A DNA stretch of 64,000 nucleotides from Actinomycetota bacterium (GTDB lineage: Bacteria; Actinomycetota; AC-67). Shown piece after piece: positions 3,761 to 45,812 of the stretch (the first letter of the stretch is position 1; every line of letters begins with the position of its first letter). A program made the position numbers and the translations under genes. Below the pieces are notes generated by a model. That model was not told where the DNA came from. It saw only the letters and a list, made by a program, of their open reading frames with translations, and searched no databases. The stretch spans positions 37,792-101,791 of the forward strand of contig DASWIP010000080.1 in NCBI GenBank assembly GCA_036397635.1, read 5' to 3'.

Positions 3761-4138
3761 GTGATGGCAGACGACATCGTCCCCGGTCTGGCCGGCGAAG
3801 CGAGGCGCGTGGTGACCGAGGCTCAGACCGCGATCGGGCTCGGGTCCGGCGACGTGCCGGTCTTCGGGACGCCCGCGCTGCTCGCGATGATGGAGGAAGC
3901 TGCTGTGGCCGCGCTGCTCGGGGCGCTGCCCGACGGGCGGACCAGTGTCGGCGTCTCGGTCGAGCTCGAGCATCTCGCACCCTCGCGCGTTGGCGCTGAG
4001 GTGCGTGCGCTCGCGCGCATGGTGTCGGCCGAGGGCGGACGCGTGATCTTCGATTGCGAAGCTTACGACGGGGAGACGCTGATCGGGCGGGCGAGGCATG
4101 CGCGCGCGATCGTTGATCGCGTGCGCTTCGGCCGATGA
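3761..4138 (+). CDS. Hotdog-fold thioesterase (FlK/YbgC-like)
   Basis: 125 aa. Central 'TSVGVSVELEHLAPSRVGAEV' followed by a Gly-rich strand, typical of small acyl-CoA thioesterases. Stop overlaps the next start (ATGA). Confidence 0.55.
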   Translation: MMADDIVPGLAGEARRVVTEAQTAIGLGSGDVPVFGTPALLAMMEEAAVAALLGALPDGRTSVGVSVELEHLAPSRVGAEVRALARMVSAEGGRVIFDCEAYDGETLIGRARHARAIVDRVRFGR

Positions 4139-4452
4139 GCACGTACGTCGAGGCCGCGCGCTTGACGGACGTCCCGCCGGGGACCGGCCGGAACGTCGAC
4201 GTGGACGGCCGGCCTGTTGCGCTGTTCAACCTGGACGGGACGTTCTACGCCTACGAGGGAGTCTGCCTGCATCGCGGCGGCCCCGTCGGCGAGGGTGATG
4301 TCGAGGACAGCGTGGTCACGTGTCCCTGGCACGGCTGGCAGTACGAGGTCGCAACAGGCCGGCACACGCTCGATCCTACGATCGGCCTCCGCCCCTACGA
4401 CGTACGGGTCGAAGGGGACGCGGTCCTCGTGGCGATCCCCGATCAGCCCTGA
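4135..4452 (+). CDS. Rieske [2Fe-2S] domain protein (NirD / Rieske ferredoxin-like)
   Basis: Rieske ligand motifs 'CLHRGG' and 'CPWHGW' about 17 residues apart. 105 aa. Confidence 0.8.
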   Translation: MSTYVEAARLTDVPPGTGRNVDVDGRPVALFNLDGTFYAYEGVCLHRGGPVGEGDVEDSVVTCPWHGWQYEVATGRHTLDPTIGLRPYDVRVEGDAVLVAIPDQP

Positions 4453-6102: not shown

Positions 6103-6405
6103 ATGGTCACGATGCTGGTGTTCTACCGGGCGCCTGCCGACGCCGAGGCTTTCGAGAAGCGTTACGTCGAGGGCCATCTGCCCAAGATAGGGGAGTACCA
6201 GAACATCAAGGAGTTCTCGTTCCACAAGGTGTCACGCAAGGTCATGGGCGACTTCCCGTATGAGTACGTGTTCTCGGGCTCTTGGGCGGACAAGGACGGC
6301 TGGAAGGCGGACCTCGGCAGCGACGCGGCGAAGCAGGCGACCGAGGACGCGAACACCTTCGCCGAAGGCCTGTTCGACGTCGTCCTGCTCGAGCAGCTCG
6401 CCTGA
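6103..6405 (+). CDS. EthD-family / dimeric alpha-beta barrel protein
   Basis: About 100 aa 'MVTMLVFYRAPADAEAFEKRYVEGHLP...'. SD 'GGGAGGG' before the ATG at 6103. Confidence 0.55.
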   Translation: MVTMLVFYRAPADAEAFEKRYVEGHLPKIGEYQNIKEFSFHKVSRKVMGDFPYEYVFSGSWADKDGWKADLGSDAAKQATEDANTFAEGLFDVVLLEQLA

Positions 6406-6415
6406 GGAGCCGTCG

Positions 6416-7207
6416 ATGAGCGACACGATCATCTACGACGTCTCCGACGGTATCGCGACGATCACGCTGAACCGGCCCGATTCGCTGAACGCGCTCAACA
6501 CCGAACTGAGCAACGCGTTCATCAAGGCGATCGGGGACGCCGGGTCGGACCTGGGGGTGCGCGCGGTGATCATCACCGGCGCGGGGCGCGCGTTCTGCGC
6601 CGGCGCCGATCTCGCCGAGGTGCAGAACCAGATGGAAGGCGGGAAGCAGATGCGCCCGGACGAGATCCTGCGCACCCGCTACAACCCGATCGTGCTCGGC
6701 ATCACCGAGATGCCCAAGCCCGTGATCGCCGCCGTGAACGGCGCAGCCGCCGGCGCGGGCTCATCGGTCGCGCTCGCATGCGACATCCGCATCGCCGGTG
6801 ACAAGGCCAAGTTCCTGCAGGCTTTCATCAAGATCGGGCTGATCCCCGACTCGGGCGCTCACTGGCTGCTCCCTCGTTTGGTCGGGCAGGCCAAGGCGAC
6901 GGAGCTCGCGATAACCGGCGAGACGATCGACGCCGAGGAGGCGCTGCGGATCGGGATGGTCAACCGCGTGGTGCCGCAGGCCGAGCTGCTCGAGCAGGCG
7001 ACGGCGTGGGCCAAGCGGTTCGCCACCGGCCCGACCGTGGCGTACGGGCTGACCAAGAAGGCGTTCCGTCTGGCGGCAACCGCGGACCTGTCGACCGTTC
7101 TGGACATCGAGGCCGACCTGCAGGCCGAGGCGGCACTGACCCGCGACAGCGTCGAAGGCGTGGTCGCGTTCATCGAGAAGCGCGACGCGACGTTCGAGGG
7201 CAGATAA
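6416..7207 (+). CDS. Enoyl-CoA hydratase/isomerase (crotonase family)
   Basis: 'ITLNRPDSLNALN', 'AGADL', oxyanion-hole context 'AAVNGAAAGAG'. SD 'GAGGAG' upstream of the ATG at 6416. Confidence 0.85.
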   Translation: MSDTIIYDVSDGIATITLNRPDSLNALNTELSNAFIKAIGDAGSDLGVRAVIITGAGRAFCAGADLAEVQNQMEGGKQMRPDEILRTRYNPIVLGITEMPKPVIAAVNGAAAGAGSSVALACDIRIAGDKAKFLQAFIKIGLIPDSGAHWLLPRLVGQAKATELAITGETIDAEEALRIGMVNRVVPQAELLEQATAWAKRFATGPTVAYGLTKKAFRLAATADLSTVLDIEADLQAEAALTRDSVEGVVAFIEKRDATFEGR

Positions 7208-7210
7208 GCA

Positions 7211-7234
7211 AAGGGGCCCCGATGGGGGCCCTTC
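7211..7234. terminator. GC hairpin between convergent genes (hydratase + / secreted protein -)
   Basis: 'aaggggcccc gatg ggggcccttc' (one bulge). Confidence 0.35.
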
Positions 7235-7251
7235 GCTGCTGCTCGGATCGG

Positions 7252-7725
7252 CTAGACCAGCTTCTGATAATGCACCACGCTGTAGTTGTCGACCGTGATG
7301 GTCACGGTGCCGGTTCCCTCGGGCATCTCGATGCTTTGGCTCTCCCAGCGCTCCGTCTGCGGGTCGGTGGCCCAGTGCCACTCGATCGAGATCGTCGTGT
7401 CGCCGAACTGCCACGTCGCCGGGCCCGGATTCGCAGTCTGCGGGAGGCGTGTCACAGCGACAATCGCATGGGTAGCCCCGGGGGTGAGGTAGTTCGTGTC
7501 GACGAAGGGCAGGTCGGGATCGCCGGCTGTGAGGCAACCATTCGTCCCGGCGTTGAATCCGCGCCGGGCCGCGCCTGCGTCGGCACCCGAGAAGATCACG
7601 ATGTGCCCGGCGTCGCGGAGACAGTTCTCCTCATTGTCTTCCGTCGGATCCGCCTGTGCGCCCAACGGCGCGAGCATCAGCGCGGCAAGCGCGGCCGCCG
7701 CGAGCATGACGGTGCGATTCCTCAT
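7252..7725 (-). CDS. Secreted hypothetical protein
   Basis: Signal peptide 'MRNRTVMLAAAALAALMLAPLGAQA' from the in-frame ATG at 7725. Unknown function. Confidence 0.5.
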   Translation of the reverse strand: MRNRTVMLAAAALAALMLAPLGAQADPTEDNEENCLRDAGHIVIFSGADAGAARRGFNAGTNGCLTAGDPDLPFVDTNYLTPGATHAIVAVTRLPQTANPGPATWQFGDTTISIEWHWATDPQTERWESQSIEMPEGTGTVTITVDNYSVVHYQKLV

Positions 7726-7882
7726 GGGACCTCCCATCGTCTTCAGGCCTCTTGGGCCCGGCGGCGCGCCCCCGACCCCGCATCGATGGATTCGCCGGAG
7801 CTTCCGCCTCTCCTGCTTCCAGCCCCGTCGAGGCAGCGTGGTGAGGGGTACGATTGAGGAGAACCCCACAAGGGAGACCGTC

Positions 7883-8803
7883 ATGAGCTACGAGGAGAAG
7901 GTCGCAGCCTTCAAGGCGCGCATCGACGCCGGCGAGAAGATCGAGGCCTCGGATTGGATGCCCGACGCCTACCGCGAGGCGGCGTTGAAGTTCATCGAGA
8001 TGCACGCCAACTCCGAGATCATGGGCGCGTTGCCCGAGCGCGAGTGGATCCCGCGCGCGCCATCGCTGCGACGCAAGCTCTCGCTGACCGCCAAGGTCCA
8101 GGACGAGGTCGGCCACGCACAGATCCTGTACCGGATCGCCGAGGACCTCGGGAAGAGCCGCGAGGCGATGTTCGAGGATCTGATCAACGGCCGCACCAAG
8201 TTCCATAACGTGTTCCATTACCCGACCTATTCGTGGGGCGACGTCGCCGTGATCGGGTTCCTGATCGACGGCGCGGCGCTGGTGACACAGCGCGCGCTGC
8301 TCGACTCGTCTTATGCGCCGTACGTGCGCGCGATGAAGCGCATCTGCGCTGAGGAGTCGCTGCATCTACGCCACGGTGAGGACCTGCTGCTCGAGCTGGC
8401 GAACGGCACCGACGAGCAGCGCGCGATGTTCCAAGACGCCGTCGATCGCTGGTGGCGGCCGATCATGCACTTCTACGGCCCGCCGTCGAACCCCGAGAAG
8501 GACGTGCTGCTGCACTGGGGCATCAAGACCCGCTCGAACGAGGATCTGCGCAACGAGTTCTTCGACACCTACGTGCCGAAGCTCTGGGATCTCGGTTTCA
8601 GCGTTCCCGACCCGGATCTTCGATGGGACGGCGAGACCTGGAAATGGGGTTCAGAGGACTGGGCGCACTGGGACGAATTCTGGCAGGTCGTGCGCGGCAA
8701 CGGCCCGATGACGCAGACGCGGCTGACCTACCGGCGCGCGATCTGGGACAACCACGCGTGGTTACGCGATGTGTTCGCAGCCATCCCGCGCGCAGCCGCC
8801 TGA
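7883..8803 (+). CDS. paaA: 1,2-phenylacetyl-CoA epoxidase subunit A
   Basis: 306 aa ferritin-like di-iron oxygenase with ExxH motifs ('EVGHAQ', 'EESLHLRHG') and PaaA-specific conservation. SD 'AGGGAGA' before the ATG. Confidence 0.85.
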   Translation: MSYEEKVAAFKARIDAGEKIEASDWMPDAYREAALKFIEMHANSEIMGALPEREWIPRAPSLRRKLSLTAKVQDEVGHAQILYRIAEDLGKSREAMFEDLINGRTKFHNVFHYPTYSWGDVAVIGFLIDGAALVTQRALLDSSYAPYVRAMKRICAEESLHLRHGEDLLLELANGTDEQRAMFQDAVDRWWRPIMHFYGPPSNPEKDVLLHWGIKTRSNEDLRNEFFDTYVPKLWDLGFSVPDPDLRWDGETWKWGSEDWAHWDEFWQVVRGNGPMTQTRLTYRRAIWDNHAWLRDVFAAIPRAAA

Positions 8804-8818
8804 GCCCTGAAGTTCCCT

Positions 8819-10078
8819 CTAGACGATCTCGTAGACGCGTACCTCCGCCAGCCGGCTGCGCAGCAACGCGGTCGCGATGCCCGCGCTGTTCTGCAGCACG
8901 CTCGAGCCGTAGACGCTGAACGTGAGCTGCAGCTCCTCGGCTGCAGGGGCATCGGCCTCCTGCCGGCTCCACACGGCCATCCGCAGCATCTCGTCGAGCA
9001 GCGACACCGGCCCCCCGTGCGCGTCCACGATGCCGGCGCTCGCGCCGGATGCGCAAGCATCGCAAGGACCAGCGACTGCCGTCGCGGTCGAGATCGCCGA
9101 CTCGGTCCACCCGATGAGCGGCGTCGCGCCCTGCACGAACGCCTCGGCCGAATCCACCCTCAGGTCGACGACGTAGATGCGCGCGCGGACGGGCTCGCTC
9201 GGTGTGTCCTCCAGCGTGATCGCCGCGTCGCCGCTTGCGTTGCCCGATCCCGGCGCGGTCCCCGCGACCGGCGATATCACGTCGAGGTCCATCTCCAGGC
9301 GGCCGGTGCTGCGCGCCACCGCGCTGCGGCAGGTGAACGTGGTGCCGATCGACCCGTTGCAGCCACGATCGGCGCGCGCGGCGGTGTAGGGGGCAGCCAG
9401 CATACGCTCGACCGACGGCGTCGCCAGCTCGACGTGGCGCAGCGCGCCCACAACTCTTCCGTGTACCTCGCCGATCCCCTCGAGGGTCGCGGTCACCATC
9501 ACGTGAACCGACGCGCGGATCGTGCCCGGCGGCACAGGGCCACCCAACGGGTCTGCCATCACGGCCAGCACGCTCGCCTCGGCCGGCGGATCGGAAGGGA
9601 CATCCAACAGCTTCTCGGCGCGCCCGACGCAGGCCGCGCAGGTGTCGTGCTCGAGCACGATCTCGACGGACACATCGATCGAGCTCAGCAGCGGCAGCGT
9701 CCCGGATGGCTCCGCGAGCAGTTCATCGAACCCGAACGACGCCACCCCGAGCACCGCTTGGGTCGCCGTGGACCGCACGCTCGTCGCGGTGAACCAGGCC
9801 TCGGCGACACCGGTCACCACTCCGAGGGATGATCCTTCGTCGCGGGTCCGGGCGAGCAGCTCCAGATCGAACCCTCCGGTCTCCGCATCGGCGCTCGCGT
9901 CGAAGGTCACGCAGGTTCCGGTCAGGCCCAGCGAGTCGAAGCATCCCGCCGCCGCGGTCGCCTCCTGGTACGGCGCTGTCACGAAGACCTGGCGTGGGTC
10001 CGTATCGGCGTTCGCGGGCCCGGGCAGCGCGAGACTCATCGCCAGCAGCAGGACCGCTCCGATCCGTCGACATCCCAT
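8819..10078 (-). CDS. Secreted hypothetical protein (Cys-containing)
   Basis: In-frame ATG with SD 'GGGAGG' and signal peptide 'MGCRRIGAVLLLAMSLALPGPANA'. Strong GC3 codon bias throughout. No recognisable domain. Confidence 0.6.
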   Translation of the reverse strand: MGCRRIGAVLLLAMSLALPGPANADTDPRQVFVTAPYQEATAAAGCFDSLGLTGTCVTFDASADAETGGFDLELLARTRDEGSSLGVVTGVAEAWFTATSVRSTATQAVLGVASFGFDELLAEPSGTLPLLSSIDVSVEIVLEHDTCAACVGRAEKLLDVPSDPPAEASVLAVMADPLGGPVPPGTIRASVHVMVTATLEGIGEVHGRVVGALRHVELATPSVERMLAAPYTAARADRGCNGSIGTTFTCRSAVARSTGRLEMDLDVISPVAGTAPGSGNASGDAAITLEDTPSEPVRARIYVVDLRVDSAEAFVQGATPLIGWTESAISTATAVAGPCDACASGASAGIVDAHGGPVSLLDEMLRMAVWSRQEADAPAAEELQLTFSVYGSSVLQNSAGIATALLRSRLAEVRVYEIV

Positions 10079-10171
10079 GGTTCCCTCCCGTTCGACTCGT
10101 TCGCATCCCCATGAGGACCCGTGGGACGCTTCCTTGCACCCCCTCAGGGGTTCCGCCGGCCGCGCTAAGGT

Positions 10172-10510
10172 GTGCGTGTGGAAGTCTTCGAGGTCTTCCA
10201 GCGGCGGACCCATGACGATCCGCTGATCAACGTCGGCTCGATCAAGGCCCCCGACCTGGAGATGGCGTTGCTGCTCGCGCGCGAGACCCATTTCCGGCAT
10301 GGAGAGGGCGTCGAATGCTGGGTGTCCCAGCGAGGCGAGATGCACGCGGTGCCGGACCCCGAGACCATGGGCGGCGTGCTCGATCATTCGTACCGACGCC
10401 AGGACGGCTACGTCGGCGTCGGCGCGAAACACAAGCGGGTCAGCGAGGCGATCGCCGCGCGCGGCCTGCGCATCGACGCAGATCGGCCGACGGCGGGCAC
10501 CCGTGGGTAG
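10172..10510 (+). CDS. paaB: 1,2-phenylacetyl-CoA epoxidase subunit B
   Basis: About 110 aa 'VEVFEVFQRRTHDDPLINVGSIKAPDLEMALLLARETHFRHGEGVECWVSQ', characteristic of PaaB. GTG start (alternative GTG at 10178). Confidence 0.8.
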   Translation: MRVEVFEVFQRRTHDDPLINVGSIKAPDLEMALLLARETHFRHGEGVECWVSQRGEMHAVPDPETMGGVLDHSYRRQDGYVGVGAKHKRVSEAIAARGLRIDADRPTAGTRG

Positions 10511-11387
10511 CGATCCGCGGCTCGGGCTGCTGCTGGCGCTGGCCGACGACGAGTTGATCATGGGCCATCGACTAAGCGAGTGGACCGGCTGGGTCCCATA
10601 CGTCGAGGAGGACCTGGCGATGTCCTCGATCGCCCAGGACGAGCTGGGGCACGCGCGCGCTCTCTACGAGATCGTGTCGTCGATCGACGGGCAGGACGTG
10701 GACGCGCTCGCGCTGGGACGGGCGGCCGATGAGTACCGCAACGCCGTGTTGTGCGAGCGTCCGAACCGCGACTACGCATACACGGTCGCCCGGCACTGGC
10801 TCTACGACACCGCCGACGACGTGCGTCTCGCCGCACTGGATGCCACCACGTTCAAGGAACTGCGCGAGGCGATCGAGGTGTTCAGGCTGGAGGAGCGCTA
10901 CCACCTCGAGCACGCGCGCCTTTGGTTCCGGCGGCTGGCCGAGGGTCCGGTCGAGGCACGACGTCGGCTCGCCGACGCGCTCGAGGCGGCGATCGGCGAG
11001 GCGCTCGCGCTGTTCGAGCCGCTGCCGGAGGAGAACGCGCTGCTCGCGGATGGGACGTTGCCGCGCGCGCACGAAGAGATGCTCGCCGACTGGCTCGCGG
11101 TGATCGGCGCCGACCTGGACGCCGCCGGGCTGGACTACGTGCTCGCCGGCGGCGACGAGGGATCCGACGCGGAGATGATCCCGACCTCCGCGGGTGCGAT
11201 CGAGGCCGACGGGGACGCGCGCGCGCGCCTGCAGGTACCCGGCCTCGCACGACGCGACGGCCGATGGGCACACGAGGGTGCCTTCGCCGGCGCCGGCGGG
11301 CGGCACGGCCAACACTCGGAGGACTTCGAGCCGCTGTGGACCGAGATGACGGCGCTGTACCGCGCGCACCCGGGGGCGTCATGGTGA
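10503..11387 (+). CDS. paaC: 1,2-phenylacetyl-CoA epoxidase subunit C
   Basis: 'LLLALADDELIMGHRLSEWTGWVPYVEEDLAMSSIAQDELGHARALYEI' is the PaaC ferritin-like fold. GTG start overlaps the paaB stop. Carries a C-terminal extension. Confidence 0.8.
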   Translation: MGSDPRLGLLLALADDELIMGHRLSEWTGWVPYVEEDLAMSSIAQDELGHARALYEIVSSIDGQDVDALALGRAADEYRNAVLCERPNRDYAYTVARHWLYDTADDVRLAALDATTFKELREAIEVFRLEERYHLEHARLWFRRLAEGPVEARRRLADALEAAIGEALALFEPLPEENALLADGTLPRAHEEMLADWLAVIGADLDAAGLDYVLAGGDEGSDAEMIPTSAGAIEADGDARARLQVPGLARRDGRWAHEGAFAGAGGRHGQHSEDFEPLWTEMTALYRAHPGASW

Positions 11388-11869
11388 CGCGCGCGCTCAC
11401 CGAGGCCGGCGTGCTCGCGGCGCTGGACGAGGTGATGGATCCCGAGATCCCCTCGTGCTCGGTCGTGGACCTGGGCATCGTCGAGCGCGTCGCGGTCACC
11501 GGTGACGCCGTCGAGGTGGATCTGCTGCCGACGTTCTCGGGCTGTCCGGCCCTGGATGTGATCGGACGCGACGTGGCCCGAGCCGTCGAGCAGCTCGGCG
11601 CGCGCACGCAGGTCCGCTGGGTCCGCACGAGGCCGTGGACGACCGATCGGATCACCGAACGCGGGCGCGCGCGCCTGGCCGAGTACGGCATCGCGCCCCC
11701 CGGTTCGCCGGTTGTCGTCGAACTCGGAAGGCCGGACCCGATCGCGTGCCCCTACTGCGGTGCGAGGGCGACCGAGGAGCAGTCGGCGTTCGGGCCGACC
11801 CCCTGCCGTGCGATCCGCTACTGCCCGGCATGCCGCAATCCATTCGAGGCTTTCAAGCCGAAGGGATAG
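11381..11869 (+). CDS. paaD: Phenylacetate-CoA oxygenase subunit PaaD (MIP18/DUF59 domain plus C-terminal Cys cluster)
   Basis: 'VLAALDEVMDPEIPSCSVVDLGIVERV' and C-terminal 'CPYCG...CRAIRYCPACRNPFEAFK'. ATG overlaps the paaC stop (ATGGTGA). Confidence 0.85.
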   Translation: MVTRALTEAGVLAALDEVMDPEIPSCSVVDLGIVERVAVTGDAVEVDLLPTFSGCPALDVIGRDVARAVEQLGARTQVRWVRTRPWTTDRITERGRARLAEYGIAPPGSPVVVELGRPDPIACPYCGARATEEQSAFGPTPCRAIRYCPACRNPFEAFKPKG

Positions 11870-11875
11870 GATCCA

Positions 11876-12301
11876 ATGGTGGCCGATTGCCTGTTCTGCG
11901 GGATCGTCGCCGGGACCGAGCCGGCGGAGATCCTCTTCGAGGACGAGGACGCGATCGCGTTCCTGGACATCGGCCCGGCGACCGAAGGGCACACCCTAGT
12001 GGTGCCGCGGCATCACTGCGTGGACCTGTTCGACATCGGCGAGGAACGCGCGGGGACGCTCATGCGCACGGCGGTCGAGGTCGCGGAGCTGCTCAAGGTC
12101 GCGCTGCAGCCCGCGGGGATGAACATGGTTCACGCCAGCGGCGCGGCGGCATGGCAATCGGTGTTCCACTTCCATCTGCACCTGATCCCGCGCTATCGCA
12201 TCGACGAGCTGACGCCGCCGTGGCCGATCGGCCGCACCCGTGCAGATGGGAACGAACTGACGGCGGTGGCCGAGCGCATCCGCGCCATCGGCCTCGGCTG
12301 A
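11876..12301 (+). CDS. HIT-family (histidine triad) hydrolase
   Basis: Histidine-triad motif 'HFHLHLIP' and the N-terminal 'CLFCGI' zinc-site context. Confidence 0.85.
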   Translation: MVADCLFCGIVAGTEPAEILFEDEDAIAFLDIGPATEGHTLVVPRHHCVDLFDIGEERAGTLMRTAVEVAELLKVALQPAGMNMVHASGAAAWQSVFHFHLHLIPRYRIDELTPPWPIGRTRADGNELTAVAERIRAIGLG

Positions 12302-12341: not shown

Positions 12342-12788
12342 TCAGACGGCGCCGGTCTCGGCGAGCGCCTTCAGCTTGCGCATGCTGGCGGCGAGCACGC
12401 GCTCGATCGGACGCCGAAGCACCGAACCGCCGAACTCCCCCAGCGACCCGAACGGCGGGTCCAACTCCTCGGCCCACTCGAAGAACGTGCCGCTTCCCGC
12501 GGGCTCCAGCTCCCACCACGCAAGCCCGCGGATCGGCCAACGATGATGCATGATCGCGATCATCCGCTCGGGCTCCCATCCGGTCACCGTGAAGTGGTCG
12601 CGCAGCGCGATGCCCGCGATCTTGGTCACCGCGCGCACCTTGGTTCCGACACCTTCGCGCTGCGGGCCGACGACCTCGACGCTGGTGGCATCGACCATCC
12701 AGCGCGCCGACCCCTCCCAGTCGCGGAGCAGATCCCACACGCGCGACGGCGGCGCTTCTATCAGCCCGGCGACACGGAAGAAAGCCAT
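12342..12788 (-). CDS. SRPBCC-family protein (polyketide cyclase/START-like)
   Basis: About 148 aa 'MAFFRVAGLIEAPPSRVWDLLRDWEGSARWM...' with a Bet v1-like pattern. Confidence 0.6.
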   Translation of the reverse strand: MAFFRVAGLIEAPPSRVWDLLRDWEGSARWMVDATSVEVVGPQREGVGTKVRAVTKIAGIALRDHFTVTGWEPERMIAIMHHRWPIRGLAWWELEPAGSGTFFEWAEELDPPFGSLGEFGGSVLRRPIERVLAASMRKLKALAETGAV

Positions 12789-12840: not shown

Positions 12841-13518
12841 TCAGGTCGCGCGCCGCTGCAAGGCCTCCAGGTCGCGTATCACGATCTCACGCCGGTGCGT
12901 GCGGATCGTGCCACGGTCCCGGAGCGAGCGGAGCGCCTTGCTCACCGCCTCGCGCGAGGCACCCGTCCACCCCGCGAGCTCCTCCTGGGTCAGCGGAAGC
13001 TCGACGTGGATCTCGGCGTTGATCCGCTCGCCGAACTGCTCGGCCAGTTCGAGCAACCGTTGCGCGACCCGGCCGGTCACGTCGTGGGTGCCGAACTCGA
13101 CCCGTCTCAGGTTGGCCTCGCGGAGCCGCCCGACCACGGTTCGCAGCAACATGACAGCGACGCGAGGATGCTCCTCCAGATAGGCTTGGAACTCTGGTGC
13201 CGGCACGAGCAGCGCCTCGACAGGATCAAGCGCCGCCACCGTCGCCGATCGCGGCCGGCCGTCCAGCGTGGATAGCTCGCCGAGCAGCTCGCCCGGCCCC
13301 CGCATCGCGTAGACGACCTCTCCCCCGTCGGCGGTGTACGAGCAGATCTTCACCCGGCCCTGCACGATCACGACGACGTGATCGGAGAGGTCGCCCTCGC
13401 TGAACAGGTAGGTGCCGCGCCGGAAACGGCGGGTGGACGCACGATCGATGAGCGCTCGACGCTCTTGCTCGTCCAGCGACGCCAGGAACCCCTGCCGGTC
13501 GGGGCTCGGCTCTCCCAC
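12841..13518 (-). CDS. Crp/Fnr-family transcriptional regulator
   Basis: N-terminal cNMP-binding region ('GTYLFSEGDLSDHVVVIVQGRVKI...RGPGELLGELS') and C-terminal HTH ('LTQEELAGWTGASREAVSKALRSL'). Confidence 0.85.
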   Translation of the reverse strand: MGEPSPDRQGFLASLDEQERRALIDRASTRRFRRGTYLFSEGDLSDHVVVIVQGRVKICSYTADGGEVVYAMRGPGELLGELSTLDGRPRSATVAALDPVEALLVPAPEFQAYLEEHPRVAVMLLRTVVGRLREANLRRVEFGTHDVTGRVAQRLLELAEQFGERINAEIHVELPLTQEELAGWTGASREAVSKALRSLRDRGTIRTHRREIVIRDLEALQRRAT

Positions 13519-25603: not shown

Positions 25604-25819
25604 ATGGCGATGCTGCTGACGATTTTCACGTACCGCCTCTGGCTGAGCGCTCGCCTTAACCTGCGCTCCGAGCGCGGAGCGACCGCGCTGGAGTACGCCA
25701 TCGTCGCCGCCGGGATCGCAGCGGTCGTCGTGCTGGCCGTAGCGCTGCTCGGAGGGGCGACCAACTCCGACTTCGCCTGCACCGCCGAATCCTGGGAGAC
25801 TCGAACCGAACGCTGCTAG
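25604..25819 (+). CDS. Flp/Fap-family type IVb prepilin (orphan)
   Basis: '...RSERGATALEYAIVAAGIAAVVVLAV' matches the Flp processing motif (G/xTAxEY) followed by the hydrophobic helix. No tad/cpa genes within the window. Confidence 0.5.
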   Translation: MAMLLTIFTYRLWLSARLNLRSERGATALEYAIVAAGIAAVVVLAVALLGGATNSDFACTAESWETRTERC

Positions 25820-44873: not shown

Positions 44874-45812
44874 TCACGGTGCGTCGTGGAGGGCCGCCCA
44901 GATCGCGGCGACTAACCTCTCCGGGCGCGCGAGGTCCCTCCAGGTGACATGGATGACCCGCCAGCCGAGCAGCGTCAGCGCGTTGCGCCGTGCCAGGTCG
45001 TGCTCCCAGGGCATGCGGCCGGAGTGCCACCGGTAGCTGTCCGCCTCGATCGCCAGCCGGGCATCGGGGAACGCGAAGTCCACCACGGCTACGGTCCGCC
45101 CACCGCTCCTGATCCGGTACTGGGGAAGCGGTTCGGGCAGACGGGCGCGCCGCAGGACCCGCAGCAGCCGCGACTCCAGGACGCTCTCCGGAGGAGGATC
45201 CGAGGGAGCGCGCGCTTCGAGCAGGGCGCGCATCACTGCGATGCCGGGCCGTCCTCGCTGGTCTCCACGGACGTGCCAGCGCATGCGCGCGATGGAGACG
45301 AGGCGGCGGCGGAGCGCGTCGTCCAGCGCCTCCTCGACCGCATCTCTCGACGCCACCGCCGCGATGTCGATCAGCGTGCGCGCCGGAACGGTCACGGGGA
45401 TCGCCTCCACGATCGTCACGTCTCCGGCCGGAAGAGCGTTCCGATGCACGATCCCGGGTGCGATGCGGTCCCGGCGCCGGGGCACCGTCAGCTCGATCGG
45501 CCCCGGCTCGAAGCCTGCGAGACGAGGCAAGGCGGCAGCCGCGCGATGCGACGCGACGGCGCCGTCACCCCACGCGAGGCAAGCCGCAAGCAGAGACTGG
45601 CGCCATGACGGCGGGACCCCGGCGAGCCGGAACACCCCGCTCGCGCATCGCTCCCACCGGCCCACCTCGAGCCGGTGGTCGATGAAGCCACGCGTAGCGC
45701 CGAGTTCCCTCAGCTGTGCCCGCGTGAAGACCCCGTGCTGGCGTTCCGCAAGGCGCGCCACGCCCGCATCCCCCCGAGCTTGTCCGAGTTCTGCAGGTTG
45801 TACTGGCACCAT
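44874..45812 (-). CDS. DUF559 / AbiEi-N-like domain protein (Vsr-fold endonuclease-like family, multi-copy in actinobacteria)
   Basis: N-terminal 'FTRAQLRELGATRGFIDHRLEVGRWERCASGVFRLAG', C-terminal DUF559-like 'VDFAFPDARLAIEADSYRWH'. Confidence 0.7.
   Translation of the reverse strand: MVPVQPAELGQARGDAGVARLAERQHGVFTRAQLRELGATRGFIDHRLEVGRWERCASGVFRLAGVPPSWRQSLLAACLAWGDGAVASHRAAAALPRLAGFEPGPIELTVPRRRDRIAPGIVHRNALPAGDVTIVEAIPVTVPARTLIDIAAVASRDAVEEALDDALRRRLVSIARMRWHVRGDQRGRPGIAVMRALLEARAPSDPPPESVLESRLLRVLRRARLPEPLPQYRIRSGGRTVAVVDFAFPDARLAIEADSYRWHSGRMPWEHDLARRNALTLLGWRVIHVTWRDLARPERLVAAIWAALHDAP

Follow-up and report, generated by a model that had tools for sequence, protein, structure and literature searches.

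Organization of the interrupted paa locus

We describe a locus in a 64,000-nucleotide (nt) stretch of DNA from an uncultivated Actinomycetota bacterium of soil (assembly GCA_036397635.1, contig DASWIP010000080.1, positions 37,792 to 101,791; 69% G+C), hereafter the window, in which the phenylacetyl-CoA epoxidase genes paaA, paaB, paaC and paaD are not contiguous. paaA is now isolated, with reverse-strand genes on both sides: X419 lies between paaA and paaB, and Y157 splits the gene for a PaaG-like hydratase from paaA (Table 1). Both genes encode putative secreted proteins. The initial annotation of this DNA recognized the opposite-strand gene at 8819-10078, to which it gave 420 rather than 419 residues, and overlooked the Y157 insertion at 7252-7725. 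We consider it likely that this is a genuine PaaABCD core locus, an ancestral block that was interrupted twice by unrelated secreted-protein genes carried as cargo.

PaaA, PaaC and PaaD pass their NCBI equivalog cut-offs, PaaB passes that of Pfam, and a PaaG-like gene lies upstream, all of which likens the locus to the PaaABC(D)E systems of Escherichia coli and Pseudomonas putida. It differs from those operons in that paaA is cut off from paaB by a 1.26-kb reverse gene and from the PaaG-like gene by another, in that no PaaE is encoded in approximately 84 kb of the contig (starting about 10 kb before the window and stopping about 1.8 kb short of its end), and in that a HIT-family hydrolase gene follows paaD.

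The assignment of paaA is borne out by its TIGR02156 score and by a full-length alignment to E. coli PaaA (PDB 3PVR; E-value 4e-86), in which HxxSE, QDExGH, DGAA and EESxH are identical in the two proteins. We take these to be the metal-site motifs of PaaA, with the metal-ligand residues reportedly as in Grishin et al. 2011. PaaB reaches 44 bits against NCBIfam TIGR02157, below the cut-off of 85.45, and is comparably divergent throughout the clade. Its start is the GTG at 10178, as independent gene calls on the contig and alignment with the paaB start of the relative L001 agree, and a Shine-Dalgarno-like AAGGTG stands 6 nt ahead of it. The initial annotation had begun a translationally coupled paaB-paaC-paaD at 10172; the start has to be moved, while the overlaps of 8 nt between paaB and paaC and of 7 nt between paaC and paaD fit the proposed coupling.

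All four paa open reading frames (ORFs) are intact. Pairwise ratios of nonsynonymous to synonymous divergence (dN/dS) against contiguous and split relatives are 0.14-0.21 for paaA and 0.27-0.52 for paaB to paaD, with dS near saturation. The genes appear to be under purifying selection and, as far as their sequences tell, look functional.

Table 1. Features of the paa locus and its upstream region, in window coordinates
Feature	Position	Strand	Description and evidence
4HBT-fold thioesterase	3761-4138	+	Pfam 4HBT/FlK; no NCBIfam match; PaaI-like by fold only
Rieske-type [2Fe-2S] ferredoxin	4135-4452	+	105 aa; Pfam Rieske
EthD-family protein	6103-6405	+	TIGR02118 40.6 bits (cut-off 30.5)
PaaG-like enoyl-CoA hydratase/isomerase (ECH)	6416-7207	+	best NCBIfam match TIGR02280 (PaaG), 274.5 bits, under the cut-off of 345
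GC-rich hairpin, likely terminator	7205-7244		between convergent PaaG-like and Y157 genes; minimum free energy -23.9 kcal/mol
Y157	7252-7725	-	inserted putative secreted-protein gene, 157 aa; lineage-restricted family
Divergent Y157/paaA intergenic region	7726-7882		157 nt; putative promoters of Y157 and paaA, from layout
paaA	7883-8803	+	306 aa; catalytic di-iron subunit; TIGR02156 394 bits (cut-off 280)
paaA/X419 convergent spacer	8804-8818		15 nt between stop codons; sequence read directly
X419	8819-10078	-	inserted putative secreted-protein gene, 419 aa; two tandem predicted beta-sandwich domains
Most conserved X419 block	9221-9346	-	GTTFxCRS...ISPVAGTAPGSG; 38-residue run 100% identical in P0002 (59% overall)
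Divergent X419/paaB intergenic region	10079-10177		99 nt; candidate promoter region for both
paaB	10178-10510	+	PF06243 52.4 bits (gathering score 27); alternative in-frame GTG at 10172
paaC	10503-11387	+	TIGR02158 190.7 bits (cut-off 133.35)
paaD	11381-11869	+	TIGR02159 168.1 bits (cut-off 108.15); FeS_assembly_P and PaaD zinc ribbon
HIT-family hydrolase	11876-12301	+	PF01230 84 bits; starts 6 nt past paaD

History of the split

A one-genome-per-species scan yielded 80 related paaA loci, mostly from uncultivated Actinomycetota and Chloroflexota. In a neighbour-joining tree of PaaA and PaaC, built without bootstrap values, the window groups with L001 and L007, its closest relatives, and both of these have contiguous paaABCD. 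The window is collinear with L007 through the genes for the Rieske ferredoxin, an M17 peptidase, EthD, the PaaG-like hydratase, paaA, paaB, paaC and paaD, and it is collinear with L001 too. The two junctions differ sharply in length: 1368-1374 nt separate paaA from paaB in the window, compared to 0 in L007, where the genes abut, and 3 nt in L001, and the ECH gene lies 675 nt from paaA in the window, compared to 85 nt in L007 and about 115 nt in L001. Neither relative has Y157 at the hydratase-paaA position. More widely, 72 of 77 relatives are without a gene-sized gap between paaA and paaB, and homologues of X419 or Y157 were found in none of the 80 loci. Because the collinear L007 and L001 are contiguous, the window groups with them and so many relatives are gap-free, the comparison supports derived insertions into an ancestrally contiguous operon. 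The initial annotation had thought such an insertion plausible and named synteny with close relatives as the way to check it; the outcome is that the split does not appear to be the ancestral state.

Both insertions recur in diverged relatives, at approximately 59-62% identity, and for this reason they appear to be old and stable. On contig P0002, a PaaB gene is divergent from an X419 homologue (59% identity), and a convergent gene fragment lies on the other side, 18 nt past the stop codon of that homologue. In the L086 locus, EthD and the hydratase (ECH) gene are followed by a Y157 homologue (62% identity) and then by a paaA N-terminus that is 89% identical to that of the window, and a third contig, of metagenomic origin, has two tandem Y157 copies. 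The arrangement of the window recurs in at least four separate assemblies, which derive from different samples. An assembly chimera was considered and rejected, as several independent assemblies agree.

The same junctions are occupied in other relatives. Gene-sized gaps between paaA and paaB occur in five of the 77 (L002, L003, L015, L065 and L069), and what fills them, where examined, is unrelated: an MBL-like gene, a secreted beta-propeller repeat protein of 909 residues, an M14 carboxypeptidase, a methyltransferase, and two RTX-like proteins together with an ECF sigma/anti-sigma pair. This cargo lies on either strand and extends to 4.8 kb. The paaB-paaC junction is likewise gapped in L002 and L009, and no gap was seen between paaC and paaD in any of the related loci examined. 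L002, L003 and L015 make up a clade of their own in the PaaA and PaaC tree, apart from the window, which argues that the paaA-paaB junction was invaded at least twice within Actinomycetota and again in Chloroflexota. The cargo at the paaA-paaB and paaB-paaC gaps of relatives is often secreted, and it includes a collagen-like protein.

An interruption at this position is unexpected from earlier surveys, where each of 25 clusters had paaABCD in a single operon (PMC2653477) and paaA, paaB and paaC showed strong positional conservation (PMC13186573); the complex has the composition PaaA2B3-4C2E1 (PMC9493321). A precedent is the paa cluster of Bordetella pertussis Tohama I, where two genes were inserted and paaE was displaced (PMC2653477). 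As in the window, foreign genes were recognized within a conserved paa oxygenase cluster by reference to close relatives. The B. pertussis insertion replaced paaE, whereas the insertions described here flank paaA and split interacting core subunits, in a clade where paaE was never adjacent.

The inserted proteins

X419 is a real gene, as its codon-position G+C, ribosome-binding site, signal-peptide-like N-terminus and full-length homologues all attest. G+C at third codon positions is 0.80-0.94 over nearly the entire ORF, and first-position G+C exceeds second-position G+C in the minus frame and not in the plus frame. A GGGAGGG ribosome-binding site stands 4 nt ahead of the ATG. The N-terminus, MGCRRIGAVLLLAMSLALPGPANA/D, resembles a Sec signal peptide, judged by eye. 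The homology search that the initial annotation had proposed for this product returned full-length homologues at 59% (P0002) and 43% (P0009) identity. In the most conserved block, 34 of 42 residues are identical to those of the L088 homologue (43% identity overall), and 21 of these are encoded through different synonymous codons, which argues for constraint at the protein level.

When 1.84 billion representatives were searched exhaustively with a profile, 14 relatives of X419 came to light, of two sizes, one with two domains (about 420 residues) and one with a single domain (about 220 residues). X419 itself is internally duplicated: its N-terminal and C-terminal halves are 26% identical (E-value 4e-9), with four cysteines in register. 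No match to Pfam or NCBIfam was found for X419 or the nine relatives scanned with it. The AlphaFold model from a 12-sequence alignment (pLDDT 88, pTM 0.81) consists of two all-beta domains; it supersedes a model from a 2-sequence alignment, for which pLDDT was 44 and the Foldseek matches were meaningless. As modelled, the domains have a beta-sandwich or jelly-roll fold like that of carbohydrate-binding modules (CBMs). The resemblance to beta-sandwich CBMs (CBM61 2XOM, CBM6/35/36 and CBM15) is one of fold only, with sequence identities of 5-15%; neither binding-site residues of CBM type nor sequence membership in a CBM family (Pfam/NCBIfam) could be identified in X419, which differs from CBMs in having four conserved cysteines per domain and an SPxxGxxPGxG motif of its own. 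In P0009 (43%) and in P0010, a homologue with 27% identity, paa genes are not adjacent. Since relatives occur elsewhere in such non-paa contexts, X419 is most likely functionally unrelated passenger cargo, a secreted binding-type protein rather than a component of the pathway.

Y157 belongs to a still smaller family. Its only homologues are six among 5.8 billion proteins, making seven members with Y157 itself, and they share a conserved cysteine pair and the motifs FSGTDAGAARRG and RWESQSI. The Y157 N-terminus is signal-peptide-like, and comparison with known families gave no match. A relationship between X419 and Y157 was considered and rejected.

Expression, electron supply and alternative explanations

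The convergent junctions on the two sides of paaA are dissimilar. Between the ECH and Y157 genes, the hairpin at 7205-7244 is more stable than the 1st-percentile value for 40-nt windows (-22.9 kcal/mol) and resembles a minus-strand terminator, its tail being rich in T. It is near-perfect, reading GGGGCCCC-GATG-GGGGCCC. In contrast, a terminator scan by E. coli-type rules, which may miss actinobacterial terminators, gave no site at the junction of paaA and X419, and no hairpin stands out within approximately 100 nt of it. A sigma-70 consensus scan gave no match, which has little meaning at this G+C content. Cut off from its upstream neighbours, paaA probably needs its own promoter; the initial annotation had argued for one, and the presence of Y157 upstream, too, strengthens the case. 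That paaBCD must be a separate transcript does not follow, because the 15-nt convergent spacing without a terminator-like hairpin may allow read-through across X419 into paaBCD.

The missing reductase was also looked for. Pfam gene tables for the 84 kb hold no gene with FAD_binding_6, NAD_binding_1 or Fer2, and no PaaE-type combination of these domains, and a motif scan of the whole window gave no credible match to an FNR module with a plant-type 2Fe-2S module; the same scan of the 80 relatives, each with at most 10 kb of flank to either side, found none. PaaZ and a cluster-adjacent PaaK-type ligase are likewise missing from the gene tables of the 84 kb, so that the search for paaE, paaK and paaZ that had been proposed is answered for this part of the contig, and the paa genes of the window have no paaK, paaZ, paaH, paaJ or paaX/paaR in their cluster. 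As none of the 80 relatives carries a PaaE-type gene within these flanks, the lack of an adjacent paaE is a trait of the clade and unrelated to the split. The initial annotation saw correctly that a HIT hydrolase follows paaD and that no PaaE is nearby; for the same reason, replacement of a reductase by the HIT gene at this locus is not supported. Unclustered or absent paaE was known before (PMC2653477, PMC13186573), paaE lying inside the cluster in 19 of 23 cases (PMC2653477). PaaD was considered as a hidden reductase and rejected, its 'paae_haloarch' match being to the zinc ribbon only.

A Rieske ferredoxin gene lies 3.4 kb upstream of paaA and in the same upstream position in L007 (56% identity). 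Its best NCBIfam match is to the HcaC dioxygenase ferredoxin subunit (66 bits, below the cut-off), and it is tempting to speculate that this HcaC-like ferredoxin is the electron carrier for a PaaE-less epoxidase. The thioesterase and Rieske genes share 4 nt where the first ends and the second begins. The EthD gene, first of the ancestral block, is syntenic in L007 (67% identity) and in L086. What follows paaD varies from locus to locus among the 80 relatives; the HIT gene had a tblastn match in none of these and is specific to the lineage of the window. Genes that recur near the paa genes of the relatives encode a TetR regulator (39 loci), which is placed upstream of paaA and is missing at the window locus, an aldehyde dehydrogenase (20), an enoyl-CoA hydratase (15) and a thiolase (9).

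Elsewhere in the window, the HIT gene is followed directly by a reverse-strand gene of SRPBCC/polyketide-cyclase fold (12342-12788), with a weak Rv0910-type toxin match below the cut-off, and then by a reverse-strand Crp/Fnr-family regulator (12841-13518). A lone small Flp/Fap pilin gene (25610-25819, forward strand, 69 residues) stands beside sugar-kinase and aldolase genes. The region from about 33500 to 62000 holds, by Pfam gene tables, a dense gene set of the lipid or steroid side-chain beta-oxidation type, with several pairs of a thiolase (Thiolase_C_1) and a ChsH2-type OB-fold/zinc-finger gene, five acyl-CoA dehydrogenases, two adjacent cytochrome P450s, an ADP-forming CoA ligase and an amidohydrolase. 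Between a P450 pair and an acyl-CoA dehydrogenase gene lies a reverse-strand gene (44874-45761) with AbiEi antitoxin-type domains (AbiEi_4, AbiEi_1 and MTES_1575).

We propose a model where an ancestral block of EthD, PaaG-like, paaA, paaB, paaC and paaD genes received two reverse-strand insertions, Y157 before paaA and X419 after it. These would postdate the separation from the nearest sequenced relatives and predate the divergence within a small group of related uncultivated Actinomycetota. paaA would be expressed from the divergent Y157/paaA region. Expression of paaBCD together with the HIT gene would start in the divergent X419/paaB region, depend on read-through across X419, or combine the two. 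The reductase would never have been adjacent to paaABCD in this clade, being encoded elsewhere or replaced by a shared ferredoxin system.

Several observations weigh against this model. No convincing insertion footprint was found: there were only short, low-identity repeats, with no transposase or integrase in the gene tables, no tRNA and no Rfam families, and the locus lacks the marks of a mobile-element insertion, whether insertion sequence, transposon or integrative element. In G+C content the inserts do not stand out. In at least two or three lineages both secreted-protein genes remain next to paaA, a pattern that could also reflect a functional link, and the 73-residue convergent fragment on contig P0002 may be paaA, an assignment made by position. 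With the survey covering about 84 kb, paaE, paaK and paaZ may be elsewhere in the genome or absent altogether. Finally, we infer the promoters, transcripts, enzyme activity and electron source from sequence.

It is conceivable, if unlikely, that paaA and paaBCD form a noncontiguous operon, co-transcribed across X419, in which antisense overlap would make expression of the epoxidase and of X419 mutually exclusive and selection would keep the arrangement in place. Such operons are documented in Staphylococcus aureus (PMC11034616, PMC7154746), and the window is like them, in layout only, in having a gene on the opposite strand lodged between functionally linked genes, here those of one complex, tight convergent spacing (stop codons 15 nt apart here, 18 nt on contig P0002) and no evident terminator or strong hairpin. 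The arrangement also persisted while X419 diverged to 59% identity. However, the scan may have overlooked an actinobacterial terminator, and the 99-nt divergent region with a ribosome-binding site before paaB suffices for an independent promoter. Cargo that lies on either strand in relatives, and reaches 4.8 kb, points to tolerated insertion rather than to a designed antisense layout. We give little credence to a bolder extension, in which the paaA-paaB junction of this uncultivated Actinomycetota/Chloroflexota clade would be a recurrent, selected docking site, secreted-protein genes set there on the opposite strand would create noncontiguous operons that antagonistically couple aromatic-acid catabolism to the surface and secreted proteome, and a PaaE-less PaaABCD would be fed by a Rieske-type ferredoxin in the manner of four-component di-iron monooxygenases.

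It is improbable, too, that X419 and Y157 contribute to the pathway as accessory proteins in this lineage, for example secreted binders that would capture plant-derived polymers or aromatic conjugates feeding phenylacetate catabolism. Their retention on either side of paaA in diverged lineages would fit such a role, as would the predicted CBM-like fold of X419, but the homologues P0009 and P0010 are encoded away from paa genes, neither protein matches a known family, the closest paaABCD relatives have neither gene, and the cargo of other relatives at paaA-paaB is unrelated. Very improbable is a decaying remnant, in which the epoxidase, split and left without a reductase, no longer works. paaE, paaK and paaZ were not found in the 84 kb, PaaB falls under its NCBIfam cut-off, and the TetR gene of 39 relatives is missing; yet the four ORFs remain unbroken, start and stop codons overlap, the metal-site motifs are conserved in the alignment, dN/dS is well under 1, PaaB is equally divergent across the clade, and the arrangement has been retained over substantial divergence. 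That the split is ancestral, and that contiguous paaABCD arose by loss of the intervening genes, seems to us scarcely credible. The arrangement does occur in more than one lineage, but gap-free loci prevail in Actinomycetota and Chloroflexota (72 of 77), the nearest tree neighbours of the window are contiguous, as are characterized paa clusters (PMC2653477), X419 and Y157 homologues occur in 0 of 80 loci, and parsimony disfavours this order of events.

Insertion of unrelated cargo into a contiguous block makes the locus a gene-order variant of a well-known system. It counters the generalization that paaABCD is always contiguous (PMC2653477), and no new mechanism is indicated. Beyond this, paaABCD ranks as a standard case of genes kept in one operon because they encode a single stoichiometric complex, and the locus, along with the five gapped relatives among 77, indicates that such a constraint can be overcome and the disrupted order then long maintained. 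It may therefore serve as a natural test case of whether co-transcription is needed, or whether read-through or antisense overlap compensates for its loss. In a broader context, pathway calls that demand paaE would wrongly score a clade of environmental bacteria as lacking the pathway. The analysis defines two small secreted-protein families and leaves the understanding of the pathway itself unchanged.

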